Virus record (IMG/VR): IMGVR_UViG_3300045747_000505
DNA length: 64,000 bases
Reading direction: 5' to 3' (one strand)
Origin: a virus
Lineage: Duplodnaviria > Caudoviricetes
Position numbers and translations under genes: made by a program. This document shows positions 5,334 to 64,000 of the stretch, piece by piece; the first letter of the stretch is position 1; each line of letters starts with the position of its first letter. The notes beneath the pieces are model-generated. The model ran no database searches. It saw only the letters and a list, made by a program, of their open reading frames with translations, and was not told the DNA's origin.

Positions 5334-5405
5334 TTTCACGTAGCTCAATAGGCAGCAGCACCGCTTAGTATGGCGGGGATGCGGGTTCGAGCCCCGTCGT
5401 GTAAT
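5334..5405 (+). pseudogene. Degenerate tRNA (AGT-like loop)
   Basis: D-arm TAGCTCAATAGGCAGCAGC and GGTTCGAGCCC T-arm; irregular anticodon loop; no CCA. Confidence 0.5.
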
Positions 5406-5423
5406 CGTGGCATTCAATTCCAT

Positions 5424-8302: not shown

Positions 8303-9118
8303 ATGGACTGGTTCATCTCATTCAAAAACTGGCTTCGTCGCTTGTTTCTCAACAAGCCGCTGGGCACTGGGCGCATCTACGCTTGGAAGCCTGACGTCCC
8401 AGACCATCGCGACCGGCTCTTCAGCCTGCCAATTCCGGCCAAGCTCCCAGACCACGTTGACCCACTCGGCGCCAATGACGTCGTAGAGGACCAAGGTCAA
8501 CTTGGGTCCTGCACTGGGCACGCCACCACGACCGCCGTTGAAATCATCACTGGCGCTCGTACGCAGTACTCTCGTCTGATGACGTACTACAACGGTCGTC
8601 TCATCGAGAACAATGTTGCCAACGACGATGGCGCGGTCATTCGCGACGTCATCAAGGGTGTTCAGAAGTATGGCATCTCTCGCGAGAGCCTTTGGCCGTA
8701 CGTCGAAGCTAAGTTCGCAAAGAAGCCAACAGCCAAGTCCTACACCGACGCGCTTGGTCTGCGCACCAAGATTGCCTCGTACGAGCGCATCACCACGCTT
8801 GAGCAGGTCAAGACGGCGCTTGCCGCTGGTCTGCCAGTGGTCTTTGGCTTCTCCGTTCCAGAGTACTTCGAGAGCGCTGAGGTTGCTCGCACTGGTTGGG
8901 TTCGCTTTCCAACGAGCAAGGACAAGATGGTTGGTGGACACGCGGTCTGCGCCATTGGCTACGATGACCGTAAGTCAGCGCCAATTCCATACGTCTGGGT
9001 TCGCAACTCATGGAGCTCCGCTTGGGGTCTGAAGGGCAACTTCCGTATGGACCAGCAGTGGTTCACCGACCCGACTCGCCTCGTCGATGACATGTGGGTC
9101 ATCCATCCAAAGGTCTGA
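8303..9118 (+). CDS. Papain-like cysteine peptidase (C1)
   Basis: DQGQLGSCTG, GGHAVCAIGY, VRNSW catalytic motifs. Confidence 0.92.
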   Translation: MDWFISFKNWLRRLFLNKPLGTGRIYAWKPDVPDHRDRLFSLPIPAKLPDHVDPLGANDVVEDQGQLGSCTGHATTTAVEIITGARTQYSRLMTYYNGRLIENNVANDDGAVIRDVIKGVQKYGISRESLWPYVEAKFAKKPTAKSYTDALGLRTKIASYERITTLEQVKTALAAGLPVVFGFSVPEYFESAEVARTGWVRFPTSKDKMVGGHAVCAIGYDDRKSAPIPYVWVRNSWSSAWGLKGNFRMDQQWFTDPTRLVDDMWVIHPKV

Positions 9119-9262: not shown

Positions 9263-9688
9263 ATGAAAATCCAAGGCTTTCAAGGCGACTACTGGTTTCT
9301 GTCTAACTTCGCTTTGGTGAAGGTCGACCTTGACGGTGTGACCTACCCTAGCGTTGAGCACGCCTACGTGGCGGCAAAGACGTTGGACCCAGAGCTGCGC
9401 GCGAAGGTGGCTCGGTTCACCAAGCCAGGTGACATCAAGCGCTTCGGCAGAACGCTCAAAATTCGTTCCGACTGGGAGCGGATCAAGGTCGATGTGATGA
9501 CCGATCTGCTCATTCAGAAGTTTGCTCAAGAACCGTTTCGCACGAACCTGTTAAATACAGGTGACGCGGACATCGAAGAAACAAACTGGTGGGGCGATCG
9601 ATTCTGGGGAGTGTGCGACGGCGAAGGCCTCAACACTCTCGGCGAGCTCCTAATGTGGGTGCGCGATCAATTGGAAGGACAGGTATGA
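9263..9688 (+). CDS. NADAR (YbiA-like) family protein
   Basis: FLSNF...TYPSVEHAYVAAK...KFAQ...WGDRFWG...GLNTLGELLM. Confidence 0.9.
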   Translation: MKIQGFQGDYWFLSNFALVKVDLDGVTYPSVEHAYVAAKTLDPELRAKVARFTKPGDIKRFGRTLKIRSDWERIKVDVMTDLLIQKFAQEPFRTNLLNTGDADIEETNWWGDRFWGVCDGEGLNTLGELLMWVRDQLEGQV

Positions 9689-10371: not shown

Positions 10372-10462
10372 TCCTAAGTAAATAGAGCCCGGTGCCAGTG
10401 AAGTGCAGTATAATCCGCGACTGGTCACCGATCAGACTCCCTCAACTAACTGGACTACACCT

Positions 10463-10654
10463 ATGACACGCTCACTCCTCGCCGCTCTCGCTCTGACCTT
10501 TGCCGCTGCCTCCTTCGCCAACACGCTGCCCGCCGCAGCTTCGGCCCCGGCTCCTGCCGCTTCGAAGGCTCACAAGCACGTCAAGCACCACGCTGCTCAC
10601 AAGCACGCCAAGGCACACAAGGCTGCTCCGGCCGCCTCTGCTGCCTCGAAGTAA
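10463..10654 (+). CDS. Secreted Ala/Lys/His-rich small protein
   Basis: Signal peptide ending ASFA; HKHVKHHAAHKH repeats. Confidence 0.7.
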   Translation: MTRSLLAALALTFAAASFANTLPAAASAPAPAASKAHKHVKHHAAHKHAKAHKAAPAASAASK

Positions 10655-10658
10655 GATC

Positions 10659-11501
10659 GTGATTCGACGGCACAGCGATCTGGTCACGTACGCGACCACG
10701 GTCGTGCTGATGACCGTCGCCTTTCTGATCGCTCGATCAGGCCTCTACTCCTGCGATGATCCGATCGCCTACTGGATCGGCGTCGTGGGAGGCTCGTTGA
10801 TGTTGGTTCTGCTGCTCTATCCGCTGCGCAAGTACGTGCGGTGGCTTTGGGTGCAGCGACTTGGCAAGATGAAGGCATGGCTTCGCATTCACATGATCAT
10901 CGGCATTCTGGCTCCCACGTTGATTCTGCTTCACTGCACGTTTCGAACTGGGTCCGTCAACGCCGCCATCGCTCTGTGGAGCATGATCATCGTGATGTTC
11001 AGCGGCTTCATCGGTCGCTTTCTGTACAGCCACACGAAGAACGGCCTGCGATCAGAGCAGCGCCGACTTGAGACCTTCAAGAAGCTAGCTCGACTAGATG
11101 ACGAGGTCGATTCAACCCTGTGGTTCTCTCCCTATGGTCGTCGGCTGTTGGACATGTTCGAAGAGCGCGCGCTCGATGCTGAGCACGCTGCACTCCACTG
11201 GGCGAAGCTGCTGATGTTCCTACCGGCTGAGAGTTGGATGGTTCGCTTTCAAGCGCAGCACTCCATCAACGAAGAGCTCGAGATCATCGCCAAGCGCCTC
11301 CACTGGTCCTATCCAGAGCACAGTGAGCACATCGCTACAGCCAAGCACATTGTGGTAGAATACCTCACGTGCATCATGCGAGTGGCGCTGTACCGTGCTT
11401 GGGACAAGCTGTTCAGCTACTGGCACGTCGCTCACGTTCCATTCGTGTTCATGCTCGTCTTCGCCAGCATCACGCACATCATCGCCGTTCACTTCTACTG
11501 A
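10659..11501 (+). CDS. Multi-pass membrane protein, cytochrome b / ferric-reductase-like
   Basis: About 5 TM helices with His in LRIHM, LLHC, WHVAHVP, THIIAVH. Confidence 0.7.
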   Translation: MIRRHSDLVTYATTVVLMTVAFLIARSGLYSCDDPIAYWIGVVGGSLMLVLLLYPLRKYVRWLWVQRLGKMKAWLRIHMIIGILAPTLILLHCTFRTGSVNAAIALWSMIIVMFSGFIGRFLYSHTKNGLRSEQRRLETFKKLARLDDEVDSTLWFSPYGRRLLDMFEERALDAEHAALHWAKLLMFLPAESWMVRFQAQHSINEELEIIAKRLHWSYPEHSEHIATAKHIVVEYLTCIMRVALYRAWDKLFSYWHVAHVPFVFMLVFASITHIIAVHFY

Positions 11502-12170: not shown

Positions 12171-12848
12171 ATGAACCTTCGCACCCTCATCGCTTCTGCT
12201 GCTCTTGCTCTATCGGTCGGTGCGCACGCTGAATCTGGTACGCTTACCTTCAGCGACTTCGTTCACAACGCTGACTTCAATGCGTCAACGCTCTACCACG
12301 GCTTCAGCTTCGGCTCGGCCTGGTTTCCAAACCCAAGCACCGAGATTCGCGACCCGTACCTCGCGCTGAGCACCAATGGCGGCGCGCGCAGCGTCTTCGT
12401 CGAGCGAGCTGACCACACGCCGTTCAACCTCGATAGCTTCAACTACGCTGGTCGCAGTGACACTGGCCTCGCCTACCTCGTCATGTACAACGGTGGCACC
12501 ACGGTGTTCAGCGGCACCACGGACAACAACGGCAAGCTTCAGTTCAAGACCCTCGCTCCGGCGCCGACTGGCGTTCCTGGCGGTCAGACGTTCAGCGTCG
12601 CTGCTACGTCGGGCTACACCGGACAAATCACTGGCTTCAGCTTCGCCTTCAAGGCAGCTGGCGGTGGCTTCGGCGATGGCAGCGATTCGCTGCAGTTTGC
12701 CTTTGACACGATGAAGTACAGCAACGCGACAGCCGCAGCGGCTCTGCCGCCAGTTACGCCGGCCGTGCCTGAACCGCAGACCTATGCGCTGATTCTCGCT
12801 GGTCTTGGCGTCCTCGTCTTCAAGGGACGTCGTCAGCGCCGAACCTAA
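12171..12848 (+). CDS. PEP-CTERM sorting-domain surface protein
   Basis: Signal peptide; C-terminal VPEPQTYALILAGLGVLVFKGRRQRR. Confidence 0.92.
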   Translation: MNLRTLIASAALALSVGAHAESGTLTFSDFVHNADFNASTLYHGFSFGSAWFPNPSTEIRDPYLALSTNGGARSVFVERADHTPFNLDSFNYAGRSDTGLAYLVMYNGGTTVFSGTTDNNGKLQFKTLAPAPTGVPGGQTFSVAATSGYTGQITGFSFAFKAAGGGFGDGSDSLQFAFDTMKYSNATAAAALPPVTPAVPEPQTYALILAGLGVLVFKGRRQRRT

Positions 12849-55806: not shown

Positions 55807-55851
55807 TTGGATGAGGGTGGAGCTAGCTCCACCCACCTTCAAGGACGCATC

Positions 55852-56667
55852 ATGGCAGTACTTGGACCACTAGAGCGCGAGTTGATTGAACTCAACTCTG
55901 CGATTTCAAACCTCCGCAGCCGCGCTGAAGGGGTGGTCTTTCACTCACAAACTGGAACGGACGCTCAAGTGCAAACAATCATCCCATCAGTCTCTGGCGG
56001 TGCCGGCAACGACATCATCAACGTTGAGGTGAATGAATCATGCGTTTGTCCACCTGGTCCTCCGGGTCCAGAGGGGCCACCAGGCCCGGTTGGTCCGCAG
56101 GGTCCGACAGGTCCTCAAGGCCCATTTGGTCCTCAAGGCTCGCAGGGTTCACAAGGCTCTGTTGGTCCAGCCGGACCTCAAGGCGATCCAGGGCCAGTGG
56201 GTTCACCAGGACCCGTTGGCCCACAAGGCGATCCAGGCCAGACAGGCCCGATTGGTCCTCCAGGTCCTATTGGCCCAGTGGGTTCGACAGGTCCTTCGGG
56301 GCCTCAAGGTCCGATTGGTCCCGCCGGTCCGCAAGGTCCAATAGGCCCCGTTGGTCCGCAAGGGCCACCAGGCAAGTGTGAGTGTGACCGAGCCACGCAG
56401 CTCATCTCGGCAGACTACGAAGCACAGATCACAGACTTTTATATCGGGGTCTCAGCGAAGGGTCCTGTAAAGATCCTCCTACCACAAAAAGCGCCAGATG
56501 GCACGTGGCTCATAGTGAAGCTTGAGATGGGAGCGCCGATCGGAACACGAAAGGTCACGCTGGATGGGAATGGGGCAACAATCGATGATGCCGCCACTAT
56601 CACCATGACCAAAGCCTACGAGATCGTTTGGTTGATCAGCCGTGGCGGGTCCTGGTTCGTGGTGTAA
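55852..56667 (+). CDS. Collagen-like protein
   Basis: About 36 uninterrupted G-X-Y triplets flanked by CVC and CEC. Confidence 0.92.
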
Positions 56668-56701
56668 TTTCATTGACAAACGTGCGAAAGGGAACAACAG
56701 C

Positions 56702-57184
56702 ATGTACTACAACAACTATCCATACTACAACAACTATTTTCGGAGACCATATGGGTATGGTCACGGTGGGGGCTACTGCCCAACCTGTGGTCACGCTCAC
56801 TCTTGGTCTCATCCGGCTTTGATTGGAAGCCAGTTGTCGTCGATCAACCAATCGCTGCTGAACTACGGCGTGCAAACGAACGTGCTTCAACAGGCAATCG
56901 CAAATCAGGCCTTGGGTTACTACTAAGGCTATGAGGTGTTATCCGTTCAAGACCTGCTTCGTAAAGCCAACTGGCTACTAAGCGCTCGCGAAGAGTGGGA
57001 GCCGCCAGTCGGCTTCTTCATGCGCCCGTGCGACACCATCGCACGTGAGCTGCTTGACCTGAGCGATGACAAGACGCAGGCGATAGGCCGACTGGATGAC
57101 TACATCAATATCACTAGAGCAGCCTTAGACGATGACGACCTGAATCGCCTAGAGCGAGCCAGGAAAATCATCAACGATAAATAG
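56702..57184 (+). CDS. Tyr-rich small ORF (56702-56926) and hypothetical ORF (56936-57184)
   Basis: ORF track. Confidence 0.55.
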
Positions 57185-57187
57185 AGC

Positions 57188-57258
57188 ATCGCCACCAATG
57201 GATTGGCATCAGGCCTCCGAAGCCAGATTGGCGGGTTCGAATCCCGCTGGCGGTTCCA
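57188..57258 (+). tRNA. trnR: tRNA-Arg (CCG), compact D-arm
   Basis: Loop CTCCGAA; CCAA-TGGA-TTGG; CCA. Confidence 0.75.
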
Positions 57259-57768
57259 TCACTTGACCGTGTACCCCACGAGGTACTTCGCCGGAACCTT
57301 TGCGTTCACGCGCAGCTCTGCGAGCTGATAGAACTGCTGGTCATTGCTATCGAACTTGTCGTATTCATCCTTGTTGAGCAGCCGCTTCAGATGAAGTGGG
57401 TCGTTGCCACGCAGGTCAGGGTCACGGTGCGCCGTCACCCAAGCGCGCGGTAGGTCGAACACGAGCGTGATGCGCTCGTTCTCATGAATGGTTTGCGCCT
57501 TCGCACCAGCCTTGCGAAACTCTGCCTCACCACCCATTGATGCAAACGCTCTTGCCGTGTATGGTTCAAGCGCGAAGGAGATCATGCCGGTGCCAGCGTC
57601 GAGGCGATCAAGGCCAGTCTTGGCGATCGACTCAAGATGCTTGAGCTGGGTGCCGTGATAGACGCGCAGCGGATTCTTGTCCTCCCACCAGCCGATGGTT
57701 GGATTCTTTTCCCACGGCAGCTTCGGCACCTCTCGTGCTTCGGCGATGAATTGTTTGAAGGTCAGCAT
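57259..57768 (-). CDS. Candidate capsid-packaged ADP-ribosyltransferase-like protein
   Basis: MLTFKQFIAE start; RVYHGT, ISFA, AELRV; own late promoter. Confidence 0.55.
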   Translation of the reverse strand: MLTFKQFIAEAREVPKLPWEKNPTIGWWEDKNPLRVYHGTQLKHLESIAKTGLDRLDAGTGMISFALEPYTARAFASMGGEAEFRKAGAKAQTIHENERITLVFDLPRAWVTAHRDPDLRGNDPLHLKRLLNKDEYDKFDSNDQQFYQLAELRVNAKVPAKYLVGYTVK

Positions 57769-57810
57769 TGGAAATCCTGTGTTGGTCTTCTATTTAGATA
57801 AATACAGCAC

Positions 57811-57886
57811 GGGTCAGTAGCTCAATTGGCAGAGTTCTGGTCTCCAAAACCAGCGGTTCGGGGTTCGAGTCCCTGCTGGCCCGCCA
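57811..57886 (+). tRNA. trnW: tRNA-Trp (CCA)
   Basis: CTGGT-CTCCAAA-ACCAG arm, G73, CCA. Confidence 0.94.
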
Positions 57887-57958
57887 CGCAACCTGAGAAT
57901 CGTTCAACACAATTTCGGTGCGCGTGATACAATAGAGCATCAACAACAGGCATCCATC

Positions 57959-58585
57959 ATGCAAAGACGCCGTGTCTACATCATCGCTGCCTTACTGATT
58001 GCATTCTCTGCTCTTGGGCTAGGCGTTCTACTTTACAAGTCATCAGGTTCATCCTCGCCGTCGGCTCCAGCAGGCGGCAGCGGTTCATCAGGCGCCGTCG
58101 GGCAACCCGTGCTGATGGTTGCCACAGTGGCAGCCGCCGCACCTCGGGTTGAGGCTCGTTCTGAGCGCCCAACCACACGAGCACGCCCGCTCTCAACTCG
58201 AACCAGCGAACCAGCACCAACCGTTCAGGCGGCTGCGCAAGAGCCAGCGCTGCCTGACGAACCCACGGGCGCCGGCCCAATGTCAATCGACGAGCAGCCT
58301 ACGTTTGCTGGTTCAGGTGGTGGTTGGGGTTCAGGCACGCCGACCAGCGCACCGGTTGAGGGTGGTGGCGGTGCGCCGATGGCTAGCGCTCTCTCCTTTC
58401 AGACGTTCGGTGGTGGTGGCAGCGTCATCAGCTCGCCATCACCTGCGCCGACCATTGACACGCGCAACGGCATTCCACGCACATCGGTTCAGGTTCCGAC
58501 CTCGCCGGTTGATGAGCCGAATCTGGTGTGGTTGATGCTCGCAGGTCTTGGAGCGCTGTCCTTCAAAGCTCGTCGGAACAAGTGA
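57959..58585 (+). CDS. Ser/Gly/Pro-rich protein with PEP-CTERM-like tail
   Basis: N-terminal TM helix; VDEPNLVWLMLAGLGALSFKARR. Confidence 0.75.
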   Translation: MQRRRVYIIAALLIAFSALGLGVLLYKSSGSSSPSAPAGGSGSSGAVGQPVLMVATVAAAAPRVEARSERPTTRARPLSTRTSEPAPTVQAAAQEPALPDEPTGAGPMSIDEQPTFAGSGGGWGSGTPTSAPVEGGGGAPMASALSFQTFGGGGSVISSPSPAPTIDTRNGIPRTSVQVPTSPVDEPNLVWLMLAGLGALSFKARRNK

Positions 58586-60649
58586 GTGAAGCAGCTCACA
58601 CCAGTAGCGCTTGCCGTGGCGCTACTTCACAGCACAGCACAGGCTGAACCAGTCGCCCTACGCGCTGTCAACAGCACGGTTGACCAGACAACATCAATCG
58701 TTCGGCTCGAGCTCTCAAAGCAAATCGCGCTGCCAACAGCCTTTACCAGCGATTCGTCAACCGTCGTTGTAGACCTTGACAATGTCAAGAACATTGGCTC
58801 ACGCAAGCTGCTTGTCAACAAGGGCAACCTCAATGAGGTCAACGTTCGCACCAGCGGCGACCGCACGCGCGTCACCATCTCGCTGACCGGACGCTCGAAC
58901 TACGACCTCACCGTTGACGGTGCCTCCATCGTCATCGTGTTCAAGCCGCCATCAGACACTGCCCGCACCAAGGCGTCTGCCGCGATGGTGATTCAACCGA
59001 CCATTGAGTTTCCATCCTCATCGCCGAAGGGCGAGACGCCAGACAAGCTGCTCGCCAACGCGAAGATTGCCTATGAGGCCGGCAACTTTCAAACGGCGCT
59101 TGAGAAGCTGAACGGACTGCTGATTCTGCCACCATCGGCTTCAACGCAAGAGGGTCAAGAGCTGATTGGGCAGGTGCGTGAGCGGCTGAAGCAGCCTGAG
59201 AAGGCGATGGCTGAGTACAAGGCGTTCATCGCGATGTACCCAGACAGCCCAGCCGTGGCGCGCACTCGTCAGCGCCTGCTCGCCCTTGAGATTGCCACAC
59301 CAGACAAGGTCCCAGAGCAGCGCGCTCGCAAGGCGAAGACAGGCAAGGGCAATGACGTCACGGGCAGCGTGGCAACCTACCTCTACGTTGGTGCGGCACC
59401 TGCCAAGGCGCTGACCTGGACAGCAGACCAGCAGGTGCTAATCAACAATGCATCGGCGACTGCGACGTTTCGCGATGACCAATACACAGTCAAGGTCGCC
59501 GGGCGTGGGTCGGTGCTCACCAATCTTCTTGACAGATCCCGTCATCGCAACTCGCTGTCGGTCTTCAACGTCTCGCTCGACGACAGTCTTCACGACTACG
59601 GCGTTCGACTCGGGCGCCAGAACGCCACCGCTGGCATTCTCGGGCGCTTCGATGGCGCCTCTGGTTACTACAATCTGACCGCCGATACGAAGATGCTGTT
59701 CGGCTTCGGCGCTCCGTATCTTAGCTCGCCATCAACTCGTCGAACTGCCAGCATTGGCATCGATTCATCGCTCACCTCCACGCTTGGTGTTCAGGCGTAT
59801 CTCAACAAGCAGAAGGTTGATGGCGTCACAGAGCGCAGCGCTCTTGGACTTGAGGGTCGCTACTTCAATAACGGTCTGTCGCTCACCGGCACCGTTGAGT
59901 ACGATACGCTCTACAAGGTGCTGAACACCTCAATGGTTCAGGGCACTTGGGTCTTCGGCGACAACACGCTCTACTTTCTAGCCGATCGTCGATTGGCGCC
60001 AGCGCTCTTCGCTGAGCGCCTGCTTCAGCTCGACTCAGCGGCTGGACCGCGCTACGGAACTGTTGGCGAAGCCTTTGGAACCTCTGGCTTCTCGCGTGAC
60101 GAGCTCTACGCCTATCTGGCAGCGTCATCGCCAGTCTCGAAGGCGTTCGTGGTAAGCTGGAGCAATCAGATTACGCCAAAGTGGCTTGGTTCAATCAGCG
60201 GTCAAACGACGAACTACTACACGCCATTCAATCAGTCAGTCATTCCAACTGAGGAGCCAATCGCTCCGGTGCAGACGATCAGCTCAATGAAGGGTCTGAA
60301 CGTTCAGCTGCTTGGGTCTGACACGCCGATGAAGGGTGGTTCCATTCATCTGCTCGGCAACTACAGCAAGTCGAAGGAGACGGCGCTTTGGTATACGGCG
60401 CTACTTAGCTCGTTCGCTTGGCGCTCGTCAAAGGTCGACGTGATGCTGAGAACCGACCGAACGATGCGCCAGTTCACGACGATTGGCAGCGTTGGTGGGT
60501 CAGTCCGCCTCAACTACAAGTTCGACTCTGGCATCTCGATTGAAACGCAGTACAGTCTGACGCGCACCACCACCGTCGATGAGCTTATGCTTCTCTCAAC
60601 CATTCTAAATAGTCAGACGTTCTTCATCGGGTTCCGCTATGAAATCTAG
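58586..60649 (+). CDS. Outer-membrane protein: AMIN-like domain, TPR, C-terminal beta-barrel (porin-like)
   Basis: Signal peptide; RTRVTISL AMIN-like; AMAEYKAFIAMYPDS TPR; amphipathic strands ending GFRYEI. Confidence 0.78.
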   Translation: MKQLTPVALAVALLHSTAQAEPVALRAVNSTVDQTTSIVRLELSKQIALPTAFTSDSSTVVVDLDNVKNIGSRKLLVNKGNLNEVNVRTSGDRTRVTISLTGRSNYDLTVDGASIVIVFKPPSDTARTKASAAMVIQPTIEFPSSSPKGETPDKLLANAKIAYEAGNFQTALEKLNGLLILPPSASTQEGQELIGQVRERLKQPEKAMAEYKAFIAMYPDSPAVARTRQRLLALEIATPDKVPEQRARKAKTGKGNDVTGSVATYLYVGAAPAKALTWTADQQVLINNASATATFRDDQYTVKVAGRGSVLTNLLDRSRHRNSLSVFNVSLDDSLHDYGVRLGRQNATAGILGRFDGASGYYNLTADTKMLFGFGAPYLSSPSTRRTASIGIDSSLTSTLGVQAYLNKQKVDGVTERSALGLEGRYFNNGLSLTGTVEYDTLYKVLNTSMVQGTWVFGDNTLYFLADRRLAPALFAERLLQLDSAAGPRYGTVGEAFGTSGFSRDELYAYLAASSPVSKAFVVSWSNQITPKWLGSISGQTTNYYTPFNQSVIPTEEPIAPVQTISSMKGLNVQLLGSDTPMKGGSIHLLGNYSKSKETALWYTALLSSFAWRSSKVDVMLRTDRTMRQFTTIGSVGGSVRLNYKFDSGISIETQYSLTRTTTVDELMLLSTILNSQTFFIGFRYEI

Positions 60650-61322
60650 CCTGCTGCTTGCACTGCTTCTCTTCGCCTCATCCTGCTTCGGCGCCGAGTG
60701 CACGCTCTACGAGAAGACGCACCCAACGTTTCTGCTCGATGGAGCGCACCTCTCCACCGGCAAGTGCAACACCTGCGCCTCGTGCCACAAGGGCGGCGTG
60801 TTCATGGGAACACCACGAACCTGCATCGGGTGCCACAACGGCGACCCAGCTCGAATGACCGTAGGACGCAGCCCCACGCATATTCCAACTGGATTGATTG
60901 ACTGCAACACGTGTCACAAGACGCTTGCCTTCACCATCGGCACTGTGATGAACCACACGGCGGTCACGACCATCCAGTGTCGAGCCTGCCACGACGGCTT
61001 TCACCTTACATCGAACGCGCTTGGCAAACCGTCCAACCACATTCCAGAAATCAACCTGATTGGCGGGTCGACGATGGACTGCAACCTCTGTCACAAGTCA
61101 ACCATCACTTGGACTGGCGCTGTCACGAACCACAACAACACGCCTGGCAATGGCGCTGGCTGGTGCGTTGGCTGTCACCTGCGTGGACAGACTTGGCTGG
61201 GCGCAGGCACTCGAATGTTGCTCAATCATCGCAATAAGACGCCGCCTCCGACGGATTGCTCAATGTCTGGCTGCCATCGCCCACTTGGCAACACGGGAAC
61301 CACCTACAGAAGTTGGGACTGA
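60639..61322 (+). CDS. Multiheme c-type cytochrome (6 CxxCH plus 1 Cx4CH)
   Basis: Signal peptide; CASCH, CIGCH, CNTCH, CRACH, CNLCH, CVGCH, CSMSGCH. Confidence 0.93.
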   Translation: MKSSLLLALLLFASSCFGAECTLYEKTHPTFLLDGAHLSTGKCNTCASCHKGGVFMGTPRTCIGCHNGDPARMTVGRSPTHIPTGLIDCNTCHKTLAFTIGTVMNHTAVTTIQCRACHDGFHLTSNALGKPSNHIPEINLIGGSTMDCNLCHKSTITWTGAVTNHNNTPGNGAGWCVGCHLRGQTWLGAGTRMLLNHRNKTPPPTDCSMSGCHRPLGNTGTTYRSWD

Positions 61323-61411
61323 ACCTCACTTAATTTAGCTTAATCATGAACCTAAGATAAAATGAGCAGGCTGATAAATACTTAACATCTGTTTACTTCC
61401 TGGAGAACGCC

Positions 61412-62137
61412 ATGTTCCGCAAACTTCTAGCAATCCTCTCACTCGCCGTCTCGAGCCTACTGATGCCTGGCACGGTAGCGCTCGTCTCGCTCGCACCATC
61501 TACCGCGCTGGCGGCGGAGTGCACCCTATACGAGCAATCACATCCAGCGTTTACCCTGGATGGCAGCCACATGTCAACTGGTAAATGCTCGACGTGCGCC
61601 TCGTGCCACCTCTCCGGCATCTTCATCGGCACGCCGAAGACGTGTATCGCCTGTCACAACGGCGACCCGCTTCGCGTGACGGTCGGTCGCTCACCGCAGC
61701 ACATTCCGACAACGGTCATTGACTGCAACAACTGCCACACAACCGGCTCATTCCTGACGAATTTCAACATGAACCACACCGCCGTTGCTGGTCAGCGCTG
61801 CGATACCTGCCACACTGGCACCTTCAAGGCCGTCTACAACGCCGATGGCAAGCCGAACACTCACGTGCCAACCACGTCTGACTGCGGCACCTGCCACCAG
61901 TCGCGTACCGCCTGGGGTGTTCAGCACGAGGTCCTCCACGCTGGCGTCACCACTGGCTGCGTCACCTGCCACGATGGCTCCTACGCCGTTGGCAAGTCGA
62001 ACTACGCTCCTGGCCACCCTCTGACCTCTGACCAGTGCGAGACGTGCCACAGCATCAACGCCAACTTCAAGTGCGCCAGCCTCGGCGACCTCATGAAGAA
62101 CTTCGCGTTCATTCGCAAGGCTTTCAACATCGCCTAA
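61412..62137 (+). CDS. Heptaheme c-type cytochrome
   Basis: Signal peptide; CASCH, CIACH, CNNCH, CDTCH, CGTCH, CVTCH, CETCH. Confidence 0.95.
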   Translation: MFRKLLAILSLAVSSLLMPGTVALVSLAPSTALAAECTLYEQSHPAFTLDGSHMSTGKCSTCASCHLSGIFIGTPKTCIACHNGDPLRVTVGRSPQHIPTTVIDCNNCHTTGSFLTNFNMNHTAVAGQRCDTCHTGTFKAVYNADGKPNTHVPTTSDCGTCHQSRTAWGVQHEVLHAGVTTGCVTCHDGSYAVGKSNYAPGHPLTSDQCETCHSINANFKCASLGDLMKNFAFIRKAFNIA

Positions 62138-62160
62138 GACGACCACTTCGTCACATCGCA

Positions 62161-62184
62161 AGGGCTCCTTCGGGAGCCCTTTTT
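62161..62184 (+). terminator. Rho-independent terminator ending the cytochrome operon
   Basis: AGGGCTCC-TTCG-GGAGCCCT-TTTT. Confidence 0.9.
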
Positions 62185-62242
62185 GCTGCCCGATGAGGCG
62201 GTGGCTTATAAATACATCATCTACAACTGGCCGGCCAACATA

Positions 62243-63622
62243 ATGAATAAGGAAAAGATCGCGGAGTTTCTCATCGAAATGATGGAAGTGCTGACGATCC
62301 GTCGCATCTCACTCCTGGCTATCCTCGCGACCCTTCTCATTTCCCTTTTCACGGTTTATGAATACCGCAACGCGGTCTTTGCAACGATTTATCGCAGCGC
62401 AGATACAGCCACCATCATCACTTGGGACCTGAGCCAAGAGAGCAAGACACAGCTCGACGGCCTCACGAACATCCCACTAGTCGGCGCAGTCTTTCTACAC
62501 GACGTCAATTTGAAGAAGAACCGTCAAGCCATCAAGTACCAATTTGTCAAGGACAGGGCGATCGCCGAATACCTTGCGCCGCTTGAAGCAGCGCTGCTCC
62601 CACAGGCTCTGTTTGACTACGACTCCAAGAACACCGAGCAGATGGTTTCAATGCTCAACAACGAATTTAGCTGCTCGCCGACGCGCGAAACAATCTTTGG
62701 ACGACAGTTTCCAGATCTTTACAAGCGGTACCCAATGGTCTGCCGCATTGCTGTCCCTCCATTCTTTGGAGAATTTGTCGGGTACGTGTCAGCAGCGCTG
62801 ACACGACAACCCGCAAGGTCAGAGCTTGATGCCCTCAAAATCGAAATGAATCGTCTCGCCATTGAGACGTATTTGAGGGACATTTCGAAAAAGCTCCCAT
62901 CGTAAACACCCAACCACACGCCCATATAGCTATCAGATAGGAATGTACTTGTGATTGCCCTGGTCTCTAAGCTGGTCAAGACGATCACCCTCAAGAGCGT
63001 GTTGCTGATTGGCCTATTCGGAATTCTAGCGATGCTCGCTCTGCTAAGCTTCGAGCATCGCGCCGAAATCTTTGGGTCAATCTCTACCAACCGTTCGCAT
63101 CTTACCAATGAAGTCGGTCATGAATTTCTTGTGAGTGAGGAGACGAGAGATCGCATTCGCAACATCGTCGCATCAGACACAACCTATTCTGGGATGGCTG
63201 TGCTCAGCACTGACATTCGATTGAACTCTCGCCGTGTGCTGTTCGTGTTTGACCCAACAGCGCCGAAGGCGAAGATGACGCACCTCATTCAAACGTCTCG
63301 TCTTCCACTCTTCACTCACAATGAAGAAAACAATCGTCAGGTCGTGAAGCTCATCAACGGCGAGTTCTTCTGCGCTCCATACGGCACTTCACAGATTGCT
63401 CAGATGGCGCCAGAGCATATTGGCAGCAACGTCACCATCTGCCGTGCCAGCATTCCACCGTACTACGGCTTCTTCTCAGGCTTCGTAGCGCTGGTGTTGA
63501 AGGTCGATCCAAGCATCGAGCAGCAAGCGCGCATCAAGGAGACTCTTGAGAACCTGGCAACCGAGGTCTACTTTCGCGACGTCATCCCAACTCACAAAAA
63601 GACGTCGTTCGGAGCGCCATAA
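62243..63622 (+). CDS. Two paralogous single-TM proteins with periplasmic domain (62243-62905, 62951-63622)
   Basis: Shared N-terminal TM helix and NN.QxV.(M/L).N.EF.C.P...C...(V/I)PP(F/Y)(F/Y)G.F.G(Y/F)V. Confidence 0.75.
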
Positions 63623-63648
63623 ATAGGCGATACACAGAGGAGACTTGA

Positions 63649-64000
63649 ATGTCGAAGATTGCTATCGTTGGAGCCGGACGACTTGGAACGGCGCTTGCCA
63701 AACTACTGTTGCTTGTATCAGACCATGAGATTGCCCTCATCGACAACGATGAAGCTGCGCTGACCCGCGCTTTCACTCGCTGCTCGAAGATCATTCGCCC
63801 AGAGCATCGCGTCGCCTTCGCACCTGAAATTCCAGTTGAGACGTTCACGGCTTACACGACCGACCAGCTTGAAGCCACGCTGCGCTCAACGCACCCAGAC
63901 ATCGTCGTCTGCGCTGCCGTTGCCGACATCACGTACGCCACGGCAGAGATTGCCAATCGCCTCAGCTGTCACTACCTCGACTTCAACACAGACCCGAATG
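63649..64000 (+). CDS. Rossmann-fold NAD(P)-binding protein (saccharopine dehydrogenase-like), 3'-truncated
   Basis: IAIVGAGRLG...DIVVCAA...CHYLD. Confidence 0.75.
   Translation, partial: MSKIAIVGAGRLGTALAKLLLLVSDHEIALIDNDEAALTRAFTRCSKIIRPEHRVAFAPEIPVETFTAYTTDQLEATLRSTHPDIVVCAAVADITYATAEIANRLSCHYLDFNTDPN

Follow-up and report, generated by a model that had tools for sequence, protein, structure and literature searches.

A miniaturized relative of the bacterial PCC3 porin-cytochrome system in huge phages: a candidate trans-envelope electron conduit

We analyze a block of viral genes encoding an outer-membrane barrel protein and two seven-heme cytochromes, located in a 64-kb stretch of DNA (hereafter the window) from a 273,537-bp IMG/VR contig, and establish its homology to the bacterial PCC3 system. 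The block is, in our judgment, probably a phage-borne, miniaturized derivative of that system that acts as a trans-envelope electron conduit. The module is not a singleton: it recurs as a family trait across many huge phages, a diverse group in which it has long been retained, and its presence in more than twenty related huge phages suggests that these viruses rewire the electron exchange of infected cells. No report of a virus carrying a porin-cytochrome conduit was found in the literature searched, in agreement with an earlier note on the window that knew of no such description.

Introduction

Through porin-cytochrome conduits, bacteria use insoluble iron, manganese, humic substances and electrodes for respiration or as a food source. 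The earlier note had likened a porin and two cytochromes in the window to the MtrAB, MtoAB and PCC-type systems, and had proposed an extracellular electron transfer module that alters the redox balance of the infected cell. Examples of one such system, PCC3, come from Betaproteobacteria and include Slit_1446-1449 of Sideroxydans lithotrophicus ES-1 (PMC5566968; Hoover et al. 2023, PMC9900912). Its inner-membrane protein (IMP) is defined as a protein of about 300 aa with five transmembrane helices (TM), carrying SGXXG on TM4 and WX3HX13H on TM3 and TM5 (He et al. 2017, PMC5566968). The PCC3 system itself was predicted bioinformatically, and the evidence from Sideroxydans stops at proteomic detection, short of biochemical or genetic proof of electron conduction; this status counts against a conduit function for its phage relative.

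Gene organization and transcription signals

The coordinates, heme motifs, gene overlaps, ATAAATA motif and terminator described earlier were all found again on reanalysis. The predicted transcription unit, together with an IMP gene that had previously been missed, comprises the following features:

57798..57804, + strand: promoter-like motif (G)ATAAATA, 13 nt before the tRNA-Trp gene and the module
57811..57886, + strand: tRNA-Trp(CCA), identified with ARAGORN, first gene of the predicted transcription unit
57959..58585, + strand: open reading frame for a PEP-CTERM-like, predicted exported protein of 208 aa, start of the coupled run
58586..60649, + strand: predicted PCC3-family barrel protein of 687 aa (Pfam AMIN and TPR matches, AlphaFold2 model)
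60639..61322, + strand: cytochrome 1, predicted exported protein of 227 aa with seven heme sites (Pfam Cytochrome_C7 and c3)
61374..61380, + strand: promoter-like motif (G)ATAAATA, 31 nt before the start codon of cytochrome 2
61412..62137, + strand: cytochrome 2, predicted exported protein of 241 aa with seven CxxCH (Pfam cytochrome c7/c3 families)
62160..62184, + strand: intrinsic terminator, a GC-rich hairpin with a UUCG loop and five U, end of the unit
10659..11501, + strand: putative PCC3-type IMP of 280 aa (identity to cellular IMPs, motifs)

The TGA stop of the PEP-CTERM-like gene is immediately followed by the GTG with which the barrel gene starts, consistent with translational coupling, and the barrel and cytochrome 1 genes overlap by 11 nt. 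The ATAAATA before cytochrome 2, previously read as a late promoter, is indeed promoter-like: there are 23 copies of the motif in the window where 0.65 would be expected by chance. Of these, 21 are on the + strand, mostly 10-45 nt ahead of a start codon or tRNA gene; copies flank the module at 57798, upstream, and at 62208, downstream. The terminator consists of a GGGCUCC-UUCG-GGAGCCC hairpin followed by five U, and a 56-nt stretch of the region folds at -21.4 kcal/mol (z -3.3). A consensus terminator scan passed over this hairpin, probably because an A-T stem extension consumes part of the T run, and its presence was confirmed by reading and folding. The phage-type promoter motifs and the terminator point to wiring of the block into the phage program, and thereby favor a conduit in the service of the phage.

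The PEP-CTERM-like protein is of low complexity (Ser/Gly/Pro/Ala-rich), with an N-terminal hydrophobic anchor and predicted export, and its tail consists of VDEP, the hydrophobic helix NLVWLMLAGLGALSF and KARRNK. Its matches to NCBIfam PEP-CTERM models fall below cut-off; the tail aligns (E 9e-6) with that of another window protein (12171-12848), which clears the cut-off of Pfam PF07589 (PEP-CTERM). A full orthologue with a conserved tail is encoded on the related contig L001, and among the phage modules examined the gene is confined to the window and that contig.

Distribution among huge phages and contiguity with phage DNA

We located the barrel and cytochrome module on 21 IMG/VR contigs and on three further phage-like contigs (L007-L009), with the cytochrome alignment serving as a query for related loci. 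One or more cytochrome genes directly follow the barrel gene in 21/21 of the IMG/VR loci and in the three additional ones. All five large module-bearing contigs tested encode a terminase (TerL), and one module-bearing contig is complete, at 369 kb with terminal repeats. In phylogenetic analysis the phage barrels group together (SH-aLRT 100), separately from the 30 cellular porins included. Recent acquisition of the module from a host was rejected, given GC amelioration and this deep, phage-specific branching.

The window itself contains 46 tRNA genes and has PHROG matches to genes of phage helicase, RNA ligase, nuclease and tail-fibre-like type; neither a terminase nor a capsid gene was found within its 64 kb. 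The helicase shares only 43% identity with its counterpart in the nearest cultured phage, which is a siphovirus, and the T4-like affiliation assumed previously was not borne out. Searches of 50,697 phage records with the barrel and cytochrome 2 (tblastn) and with 12 kb of the window (megablast) returned no match. The block is contiguous with its phage flanks, the junctions being bridged or tiled by contigs at even depth in two independent metagenomes, from pond and wetland, and part of it is present in two further sequencing runs. A search for RNA sequencing runs containing the genes listed none, which counts against a conduit in use. Its synteny is kept on L001, and the dN/dS of its genes between the window and that contig is 0.14-0.19; the module genes are under purifying selection. 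Across 15 phage-like contigs and one bacterial metagenome-assembled genome (MAG), spanning a GC range of 34-58%, module GC equals flank GC in 16/16 comparisons. The mis-assembly feared in the earlier note is refuted by this contiguity, by the GC match and by the wide distribution of the module on phage contigs.

It has also to be asked whether the window might be chimerically assembled, or come from a host island or a fragment of a megaplasmid, in which case the module would be ordinary cellular PCC3-like DNA. The lack of a capsid or terminase gene in the 64 kb would suit such an origin, as would a chromosomal copy of the module in a Methylophilaceae MAG, but that copy nests within the phage group and has transposases on its flanks. 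The tRNA genes and PHROG matches, the terminase-bearing relatives (one of them complete with terminal repeats), the bridged junctions in two samples and the GC equality all argue for a phage, and we regard a non-phage origin as exceedingly improbable.

The barrel protein and its cellular relatives

The 687-aa protein bears an N-terminal signal peptide and Pfam matches to AMIN (E 9e-8), a peptidoglycan-binding domain, and to TPR. In its AlphaFold2 model (mean pLDDT 85.4), AMIN spans residues 23-120 and TPR 152-237; residues 254-686 form 22 beta-strands, with a helical insert at 476-514 and the C-terminal outer-membrane beta-signal ..FIGFRYEI. The modeled barrel has no plug domain and matches in size the barrels of TonB-dependent transporters, which hold a plug of ~150 residues; its best structural matches are such 22-strand barrels (Z 17-18). 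Of the porins put forward earlier for comparison, MtrB aligns with the model at Z 15.5; no relation at the level of sequence was found. There was likewise no match to PF11854 (MtrB_PioB) or any other Mtr family that would place the phage proteins with MtrAB, MtoAB or PioAB. A sequence-profile search of the PDB matched the TPR and AMIN parts only and found no relative of the barrel.

Against cellular PCC3 porins the barrel protein shows 25-34% identity (E 1e-27 to 1e-46), and this family-level match, together with the 22-strand model, identifies it on sequence grounds as an outer-membrane protein of the PCC3-porin family. The cellular relatives are neighbored by multiheme cytochromes with 10 to about 49 heme motifs, and adjoin ccm operons in three of four contexts and an inner-membrane protein with two WX3HX13H motifs in two of the four. 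Cellular PCC3-type clusters hold an IMP, 24-heme and 28-30-heme cytochromes and a porin, often with an adjacent ccm operon. A strong barrel match was present in ~18 of 301 genomes sampled from one bacterial order, and cytochrome similarity was detected in the 1.5-kb flanks of 10/11 such loci examined (L033-L043). The neighbors fit the published PCC3 definition and cytochrome 1 is 47% identical to a PCC3 cytochrome, so the PCC-type comparison made earlier holds as homology and goes beyond analogy.

The same architecture allows for another function. The barrel could be an exporter or a surface-remodeling channel, as BcsC, PgaA and PelB are, and the cytochromes purely periplasmic redox proteins that would carry no electrons across the outer membrane; the substrate might be the neighboring PEP-CTERM protein or a polymer, and the cytochromes might act as an electron sink, in detoxification or in feeding a host reductase. 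A TPR region with a C-terminal barrel is common to polysaccharide exporters, and a Foldseek search with the barrel model returned generic outer-membrane barrels only, BcsC among them at low TM-score. The coupling of the PEP-CTERM-like gene to the barrel gene in the window phage suits this function too, as does the fact that no complex model supports cytochrome insertion. A joint fold of the barrel domain and the two mature cytochromes, run with neither alignments nor hemes, scored 0.00, with cytochrome pLDDT ~50, and weighs on neither side of the binding question. However, the PEP-CTERM gene is missing from all the other phage modules, in which cytochromes are always present, and in both cells and phages the barrel family adjoins multiheme cytochromes and a di-heme IMP. 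The barrels of BcsC, PgaA and PelB type have 16-18 strands, and that of the phage, with 22, is wider. We therefore consider an exporter unlikely and favor a PCC3-derived conduit.

The cytochromes

Both cytochromes possess seven heme sites, as previously described: six CxxCH and one CX4CH (CSMSGCH) in cytochrome 1, and seven CxxCH in cytochrome 2. Their paralogy was likewise upheld (58% identity over 143 aa), the N-terminal half of cytochrome 1 resembling cytochrome 2. In an alignment of cytochrome 2 with 28 members, the seven CxxCH, seven further His and the Cys residues C37 and C221 are invariant, and the C-terminus presents a conserved Cys and an amphipathic tail. Relatives of cytochrome 2 number 119 at 47-65% identity; seven hemes are kept in 15/15 distinct phage copies examined, and alone among the cytochromes it occurs in all complete phage copies of the module. 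For cytochrome 1, a lipoprotein anchor was rejected, given that the signal-peptide Cys is not conserved in homologues, unlike the A/G|AEC site.

Over the last 200 residues of an 834-aa PCC3 cytochrome (L004), cytochrome 1 shows 47% identity (E 1e-50) and has the terminal motif ..CSxSGCHRPLG..G..Y..W in common with it, and cytochrome 2 is 33% identical to the N-terminus of the PCC3 cytochrome beside the porin. Going by these alignments, the two proteins resemble the two ends of the porin-adjacent PCC3 cytochrome. The phage proteins pack a heme about every 30 residues. Where PCC3 has an "extracellular" cytochrome of 10-35 hemes beside the porin, only the two 7-heme proteins were found. A search for its 21-27-heme periplasmic cytochrome with the 24-heme protein of L004 (tblastn) gave only weak matches to the same two small cytochromes, and no other open reading frame of the window has more than one CxxCH. 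The absence of such a periplasmic cytochrome from the window speaks against a conduit, as does the poor AlphaFold2 model of cytochrome 2 (pLDDT 57, from the 28-sequence alignment). MtrA (6r2q_A) matches the phage cytochromes only at E 0.9. The earlier observation that Ccm maturation genes are not encoded locally was confirmed, with no Ccm homologue within the 64-kb window.

The inner-membrane protein

The gene at 10659-11501 encodes a protein with 39% identity (E 2e-57) to the cellular PCC3 IMPs of L004/L005 and 37% to that of L002. All motifs and helices of the PCC3 IMP are present, with five hydrophobic helices, of which the fourth carries SGFIG and the third and fifth each carry WX3HX13H, and the product is a putative di-heme b-type membrane redox protein. 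An alternative TTG start at 10500 would add an implausible N-terminal extension, and the GTG at 10659 was adopted. With the IMP also encoded in the window, the phage system is more self-contained than originally proposed.

The genes do not form the single cluster of PCC3: the porin and cytochrome genes occupy 58.6-62.1 kb, 47 kb from the IMP at 10.7-11.5 kb. In three other phage lineages, short IMPs of 145-158 aa with both heme-ligand motifs are immediate neighbors of the module, and a fourth lineage has a short IMP ~65 kb from it. For two large phage contigs, of which one is complete, the query used recovered no IMP. This failure and the 47-kb separation count against a conduit.

Discussion

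On the mechanism we propose, infection would furnish the cell with a 22-strand outer-membrane barrel, tethered to the cell wall by AMIN and equipped with a periplasmic TPR docking domain, and with two c-type cytochromes, slim and of 7 hemes each. Export, heme loading and insertion of the phage proteins would fall to the host's Sec, Ccm and BAM machineries. One or both cytochromes, complexed in or at the barrel, would extend a heme chain across the outer membrane, which the IMP would link to the quinone pool. The infected cell could then pass electrons to extracellular iron, humic substances or minerals, or take electrons from them, with a consequent shift in host redox balance. The benefit to the phage would be a sustained energy supply during the long replication cycle of a large virus, a role akin to that of psbA in cyanophages and amoC in phages of ammonia oxidizers. 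More tentatively, and as a possibility to which we give somewhat less than even odds, a whole lineage of huge freshwater and wetland phages may carry a minimal inner-to-outer-membrane conduit, made of a di-heme IMP, 7-heme cytochromes and a 22-strand porin, that couples the host quinone pool to the extracellular redox chemistry of iron, humic substances or minerals.

Phage porins that alter the cell surface are known, such as the Lc porin of lambdoid phage PA-2, and with this precedent the phage porin might instead replace or mask a host PCC3-type porin that serves as phage receptor, blocking superinfection, with the cytochromes kept only so that the replacement still functions for the host. 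The strong divergence of phage barrels from cellular ones would agree with such a role. The co-conservation of the IMP, the seven invariant heme sites and purifying selection, on the other hand, indicate selection on electron transfer itself, and preserving host fitness is of little use to huge lytic phages; we judge receptor replacement quite improbable.

If the module works as a conduit, infection would directly change how iron and carbon are redox-cycled in ponds, wetlands and humic lakes, viruses would directly drive extracellular electron transfer in nature, and this process would join photosystem, ammonia-oxidation and sulfur-oxidation functions among the energy functions hijacked by phages. 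In that case, too, no smaller natural porin-cytochrome wire would be known, and the phage version would serve as a minimal part for the study of PCC3, with a barrel domain of ~430 aa, cytochromes of ~205 aa and an IMP of ~150 aa in the short phage versions. It should be far easier to express, assay and solve than cellular PCC3, with its 10 to about 49 heme motifs, and this natural minimization makes the long-open question of the role of PCC3 directly testable.

Comparison with known systems

The closest likeness is to PCC3. The porins are homologous, pairing TPR with a barrel, and PCC3 porins often have a peptidoglycan-binding N-terminal domain; the IMPs are homologous, with five helices, SGxxG and two WX3HX13H; and the heme density, at ~30 residues per heme, is similarly wire-like. 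The phage system differs in having 7 hemes per cytochrome rather than 10-35 and 21-27, no long periplasmic cytochrome in the window, genes split in the window phage between two loci 47 kb apart, an IMP cut to ~150 aa in other phages, and barrels that form a deep branch of their own, carried by viruses.

The MtrB barrel has 26 strands, whereas that of the phage has 22 and an N-terminal AMIN and TPR extension, and the phage cytochromes carry 7 hemes rather than 10. What the phage module has in common with MtrCAB, MtoAB and PioAB (Shewanella, Sideroxydans, Rhodopseudomonas; PDB 6R2Q) is the principle of pairing a barrel in the outer membrane with a slim multiheme cytochrome, and reliance on Ccm.

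As in phages carrying psbA or amoC, a virus here encodes a key membrane component of an energy-harvesting chain of its host, but as a multi-protein set reaching from inner to outer membrane and not a single subunit, and in strongly diverged, miniaturized rather than host-like form. The amoC phages are also huge freshwater phages of Betaproteobacteria, and their study describes a host-like OprP porin and a NapC/NirT cytochrome, with no porin-cytochrome pair (bioRxiv 10.64898/2026.06.18.733297).

Borgs and other extrachromosomal elements of Methanoperedens are archaeal and non-viral, have no outer-membrane porin and carry unrelated cytochrome families. Like the huge phages described here, they are giant mobile elements with multiheme cytochromes, which are thought to augment the extracellular electron transfer of the host (PMC11208441, PMC13444090).

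Gene block, promoter-like motifs and terminator

The four open reading frames (ORFs) that the earlier note described lie where it had placed them, and the last three form what we call the module:

57959-58585 (+), PEP-CTERM-like protein, 208 aa
58586-60649 (+), barrel protein, 687 aa, GTG start
60639-61322 (+), cytochrome 1, 227 aa
61412-62137 (+), cytochrome 2, 241 aa

The proposed translational coupling is borne out by the stop codon of the first gene, which abuts the GTG of the barrel gene, and by an 11-nt overlap between the barrel and cytochrome 1 genes; the strong terminator at the end of the block consists of a GC-rich stem closed by a UUCG loop and followed by five U. The ATAAATA reported at 61374-61380 is present as one copy of a motif with consensus GATAAATA. 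The window has 23 copies of this (G)ATAAATA motif where 0.65 would be expected (a roughly 35-fold excess); 21 of them are in coding (+) orientation, usually 10-45 nt 5′ of a ribosome-binding site or tRNA gene and often directly 3′ of a hairpin. Example sites from the motif scan of the window are 1440, 3114, 42782, 57798 (upstream of tRNA-Trp and the module), 61374, 62208 (part of a full TATAAATA at 62207, 3′ of the terminator) and 63619. The motif is similar to the T4 late TATAAATA and is probably the phage promoter element. Behind their own TATAAATA, 3′ of the terminator, lie tandem paralogues conserved in the related 9.1-kb contig L001:

62243-62905 (+) and 62951-63622 (+), proteins with a membrane anchor at the N-terminus, phrog_31287 (function unknown)

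Phage context and contiguity

The window, which comes from a 273.5-kb contig, carries 46 tRNA genes, genes with phage matches (helicase, RNA ligase, CCA-adding enzyme and nuclease) and a gene for a collagen-like, tail-fibre-type protein. No close cultured phage and no DNA-level match were found for the window, and its helicase reaches no more than 43.7% identity with siphovirus helicases; the description of the phage as T4-like is therefore not established. Three further features were recorded among these genes:

5334-5406 (+), tRNA with a four-base anticodon (agta), no amino acid assigned by ARAGORN
8303-9118 (+), papain-family cysteine protease (Peptidase_C1), and 9263-9688 (+), NADAR-domain protein, among tRNA arrays
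55807-56667 (+), the collagen-like gene, with an 18-nt in-frame insertion at 56109 in one wetland metagenome, adding six Gly-X-Y residues, a repeat-length variation between populations

The stretch is present in four pond or wetland metagenome runs from four different studies. The check on read coverage that had been suggested shows the module to be contiguous with phage DNA in two of them: error-free assembled pieces of run 1 (56674-59986, 59957-61197 and 61168-64000) and pieces of run 2, from another study (56155-58102, 58096-58688, 59155-61761 and 61732-64000), run into the flanks, at a depth that stays uniform from module to flanks (about 25 and 10, respectively). Synteny with L001 extends from the antisense gene upstream of the module to the saccharopine-dehydrogenase-like gene on its downstream side, with protein identities from 78% (barrel) to 94% (cytochrome 2). 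Even depth, assembly into the flanks in two runs and this synteny exclude a mis-assembled host fragment. Between the window and L001, the three module genes have dN/dS values of 0.14-0.19, in the range of the flanking phage genes, which shows purifying selection on the module.

The barrel protein and its cellular relatives

The Pfam domains of the barrel protein are AMIN and TPR. Its AlphaFold2 model (mean pLDDT 85.4) comprises:

residues 23-120, AMIN domain, followed by a disordered linker
residues 152-237, TPR domain
residues 254-686, 22 beta-strands
residues 476-514, three-helix insert within the barrel

The C-terminal end forms an outer membrane protein (OMP)-type beta-signal. No Pfam or NCBIfam family covers the barrel part, and a sequence search of solved structures gave no match to it. 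In an exhaustive structural comparison the nearest structures were 22-strand TonB-dependent transporter barrels (Z 17-18), whose strand number the phage barrel shares but whose plug domain it lacks, so that the model shows a wide, plugless barrel; MtrB is matched at Z 15.5. The AMIN part resembles AmiC and PilQ, and the TPR part BamD.

Sequence searches retrieved Betaproteobacterial homologues at 25-34% identity, in many of which AMIN is replaced by SPOR, another peptidoglycan-binding domain. In all four cellular contexts examined the homologue lies directly 3′ of very large multiheme cytochromes, and in three of them a ccm operon follows directly 3′ of it. By motif counts, cellular cluster L004 encodes a 348-aa protein with two WX3HX13H motifs, 24-heme and 28-heme cytochromes and the barrel, and cellular cluster L002 a 320-aa protein with two WX3HX13H motifs, cytochromes with 30, 30 and 14 hemes and the barrel, in the gene order of Slit_1446-1449. 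On this evidence from homology and gene order, the cellular relatives of the phage barrel are porins of PCC3, the porin-cytochrome gene cluster type of Betaproteobacteria (He et al. 2017, PMC5566968; Hoover et al. 2023, PMC9900912). From 1.84 billion proteins, a profile of the barrel family retrieved 1,282 cluster representatives at E <= 1e-30. Of 301 genomes sampled from the order, about 18 have a strong barrel match, most others giving an AMIN-only match through PilQ.

The cytochromes

Both proteins are 7-heme cytochromes, as first read: cytochrome 1 has six CxxCH and one CX4CH motif, cytochrome 2 seven CxxCH, and both match Pfam cytochrome c7/c3 families. Cytochrome 2 belongs to a tight family (119 proteins, 47-65% identity) and ends in an amphipathic tail. 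In a 28-member alignment all seven CxxCH, seven further His, Cys37 and Cys221 are invariant; with the additional histidines, each of the seven hemes could have bis-His ligation, leaving these predicted exported, heme-dense proteins with every ligand conserved.

The sequence of cytochrome 1 is mosaic: over the first 143 residues it shares 58% identity with cytochrome 2, and residues 34-226 match the extreme C-terminus of the 834-aa cytochrome encoded adjacent to the porin in L004 (47% identity, E 1e-50), including the terminal motifs GNGAGWCxGCH and CSxSGCHRPLGxxGTxYxxW. Because cytochrome 2 matches the N-terminus of the same protein (33% identity, E 7e-24), the phage cytochromes look like the two ends of a porin-adjacent PCC3 cytochrome with the long middle gone. 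The suggested comparison with PCC-type systems thus holds for barrel and cytochromes alike. At about 30 residues per heme, both equal the heme density of MtrA, regarded as a mark of a molecular wire (He et al. 2017, PMC5566968).

An inner-membrane protein

A search of the window with L004 PCC3 proteins gave a match at 10674-11498, within a gene that the earlier list of components, correct for porin and cytochromes, had missed:

10659-11501 (+), PCC3-type inner-membrane protein (IMP), 280 aa, GTG at 10659 the most likely start

It is 39% identical to PCC3 inner-membrane proteins (E 2e-57) and has five hydrophobic helices, with SGFIG on the fourth and WX3HX13H on the third and fifth, whose histidines have been taken to bind two b-type hemes in a protein that reacts with quinones (He et al. 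2017, PMC5566968). With the IMP added to porin and cytochromes, homology shows three of the four PCC3 component types to be carried by the phage; the long periplasmic PCC3 cytochrome was not found within the window. Two neighbouring genes are of interest in their own right:

10403-10654 (+), small exported protein ending 5 nt before the IMP gene, with an Ala/Lys/His-rich mature part (..KAHKHVKHHAAHKHAKAHK..), which could be a metal- or heme-binding partner
12171-12848 (+), exported protein whose tail is a genuine PEP-CTERM one (passing Pfam PF07589, 29.8 bits), roughly 0.7 kb 3′ of the IMP gene and of tRNA-Ser

In three other module-bearing lineages a natural mini-IMP of 145-158 aa adjoins the module:

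L012:6716-7153
L018:2687-3163
L024:6742-7212 (lineage L024/L030)

These retain both WX3HX13H motifs and SGxxG and lack only the cytoplasmic insert between helices 4 and 5 (about 125 residues in the window's IMP, or more); they define the minimal core of the family. A 328-kb contig has a short IMP about 65 kb from its module.

Distribution across huge phages and one bacterium

The suggested IMG/VR search, run with the cytochrome alignment, yielded 21 viral contigs (11-369 kb), and protein look-ups added three phage-like contexts, one in an NCBI assembly. Wherever upstream DNA was present the barrel gene lay directly 5′ of the cytochrome genes, followed either by a cytochrome-1-like (4-7 hemes) and a cytochrome-2-like protein (always 7 hemes) or by cytochrome 2 alone. 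Large terminase scored above the Pfam cut-off in all five large contigs tested, and one of these, the 369-kb contig, is rated complete and carries direct terminal repeats. Module GC equals flank GC in 15 of 15 phage-like contigs compared, over a range of 34% to 58%.

In a maximum-likelihood tree, 16 phage barrels and one bacterial one were separated from 30 cellular PCC3 porins by a branch with SH-aLRT 100, with long distances within the phage group. This pattern means that these are old phage genes, kept vertically and conserved across phages, rather than recent pick-ups. A pattern scan of 185,579 species-representative genomes found one cellular copy, so that the module appears nearly phage-specific, a statement qualified by the use of two peptide patterns only. 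That copy, in a Methylophilaceae MAG (L031:5983-8941, JABFRO010000001.1; order cytochrome 2, barrel, cytochrome 1), sits between IS200-like and DDE transposase genes, and its barrel is nested inside the phage group (support 87), which fits a phage-to-cell transfer or a marker of the host lineage.

PEP-CTERM-like protein

Among module loci, the 57959-58585 protein occurs only in the window and L001. It has an N-terminal hydrophobic anchor and a low-complexity, fast-evolving body; its conserved tail, in which a helix separates VDEP or VSEP from KARRxK, scores below the PEP-CTERM model cut-offs and aligns with the tail of the 12171-12848 protein. It is probably an exosortase substrate altering the cell surface, and we treat it as an accessory rather than a core conduit part. 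Two exosortase-type substrates in one phage would imply a host with exosortase.

Proposed mechanism and comparison with known systems

The observation is confirmed, and the interpretation as a trans-envelope electron conduit is supported and extended, the main uncertainty being functional rather than anatomical. In the mechanism that we propose, the cytochromes would sit inside the barrel or against it, with the conserved C-terminal part of cytochrome 1 most likely nearest the porin; a possible partner of the TPR domain is the cytochrome 2 tail, and the IMP would connect the heme chain to quinones. Host Ccm, Sec and BAM machineries would mature the parts; consistent with the earlier reading, no Ccm homologue was found within the window. 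PCC3 has been proposed for electron uptake in iron oxidisers and is present in many other bacteria (He et al. 2017, PMC5566968). The phage conduit might pass electrons in either direction. By analogy with psbA or amoC phages, the likely benefit to the phage would be an energy supply sustained or boosted during infection.

The full-text literature searched, including the huge-phage paper, held no report of a phage-encoded porin-cytochrome set. The closest precedents are multiheme cytochromes encoded by archaeal Borg-type elements (PMC11208441, PMC13444090) and amoC phages with a host-like NapC/NirT cytochrome and an OprP porin (bioRxiv 10.64898/2026.06.18.733297). Support for PCC3 has so far consisted of proteomic detection. 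By homology, the module is a new, virus-borne and miniaturised variant of this known but unproven type of system.
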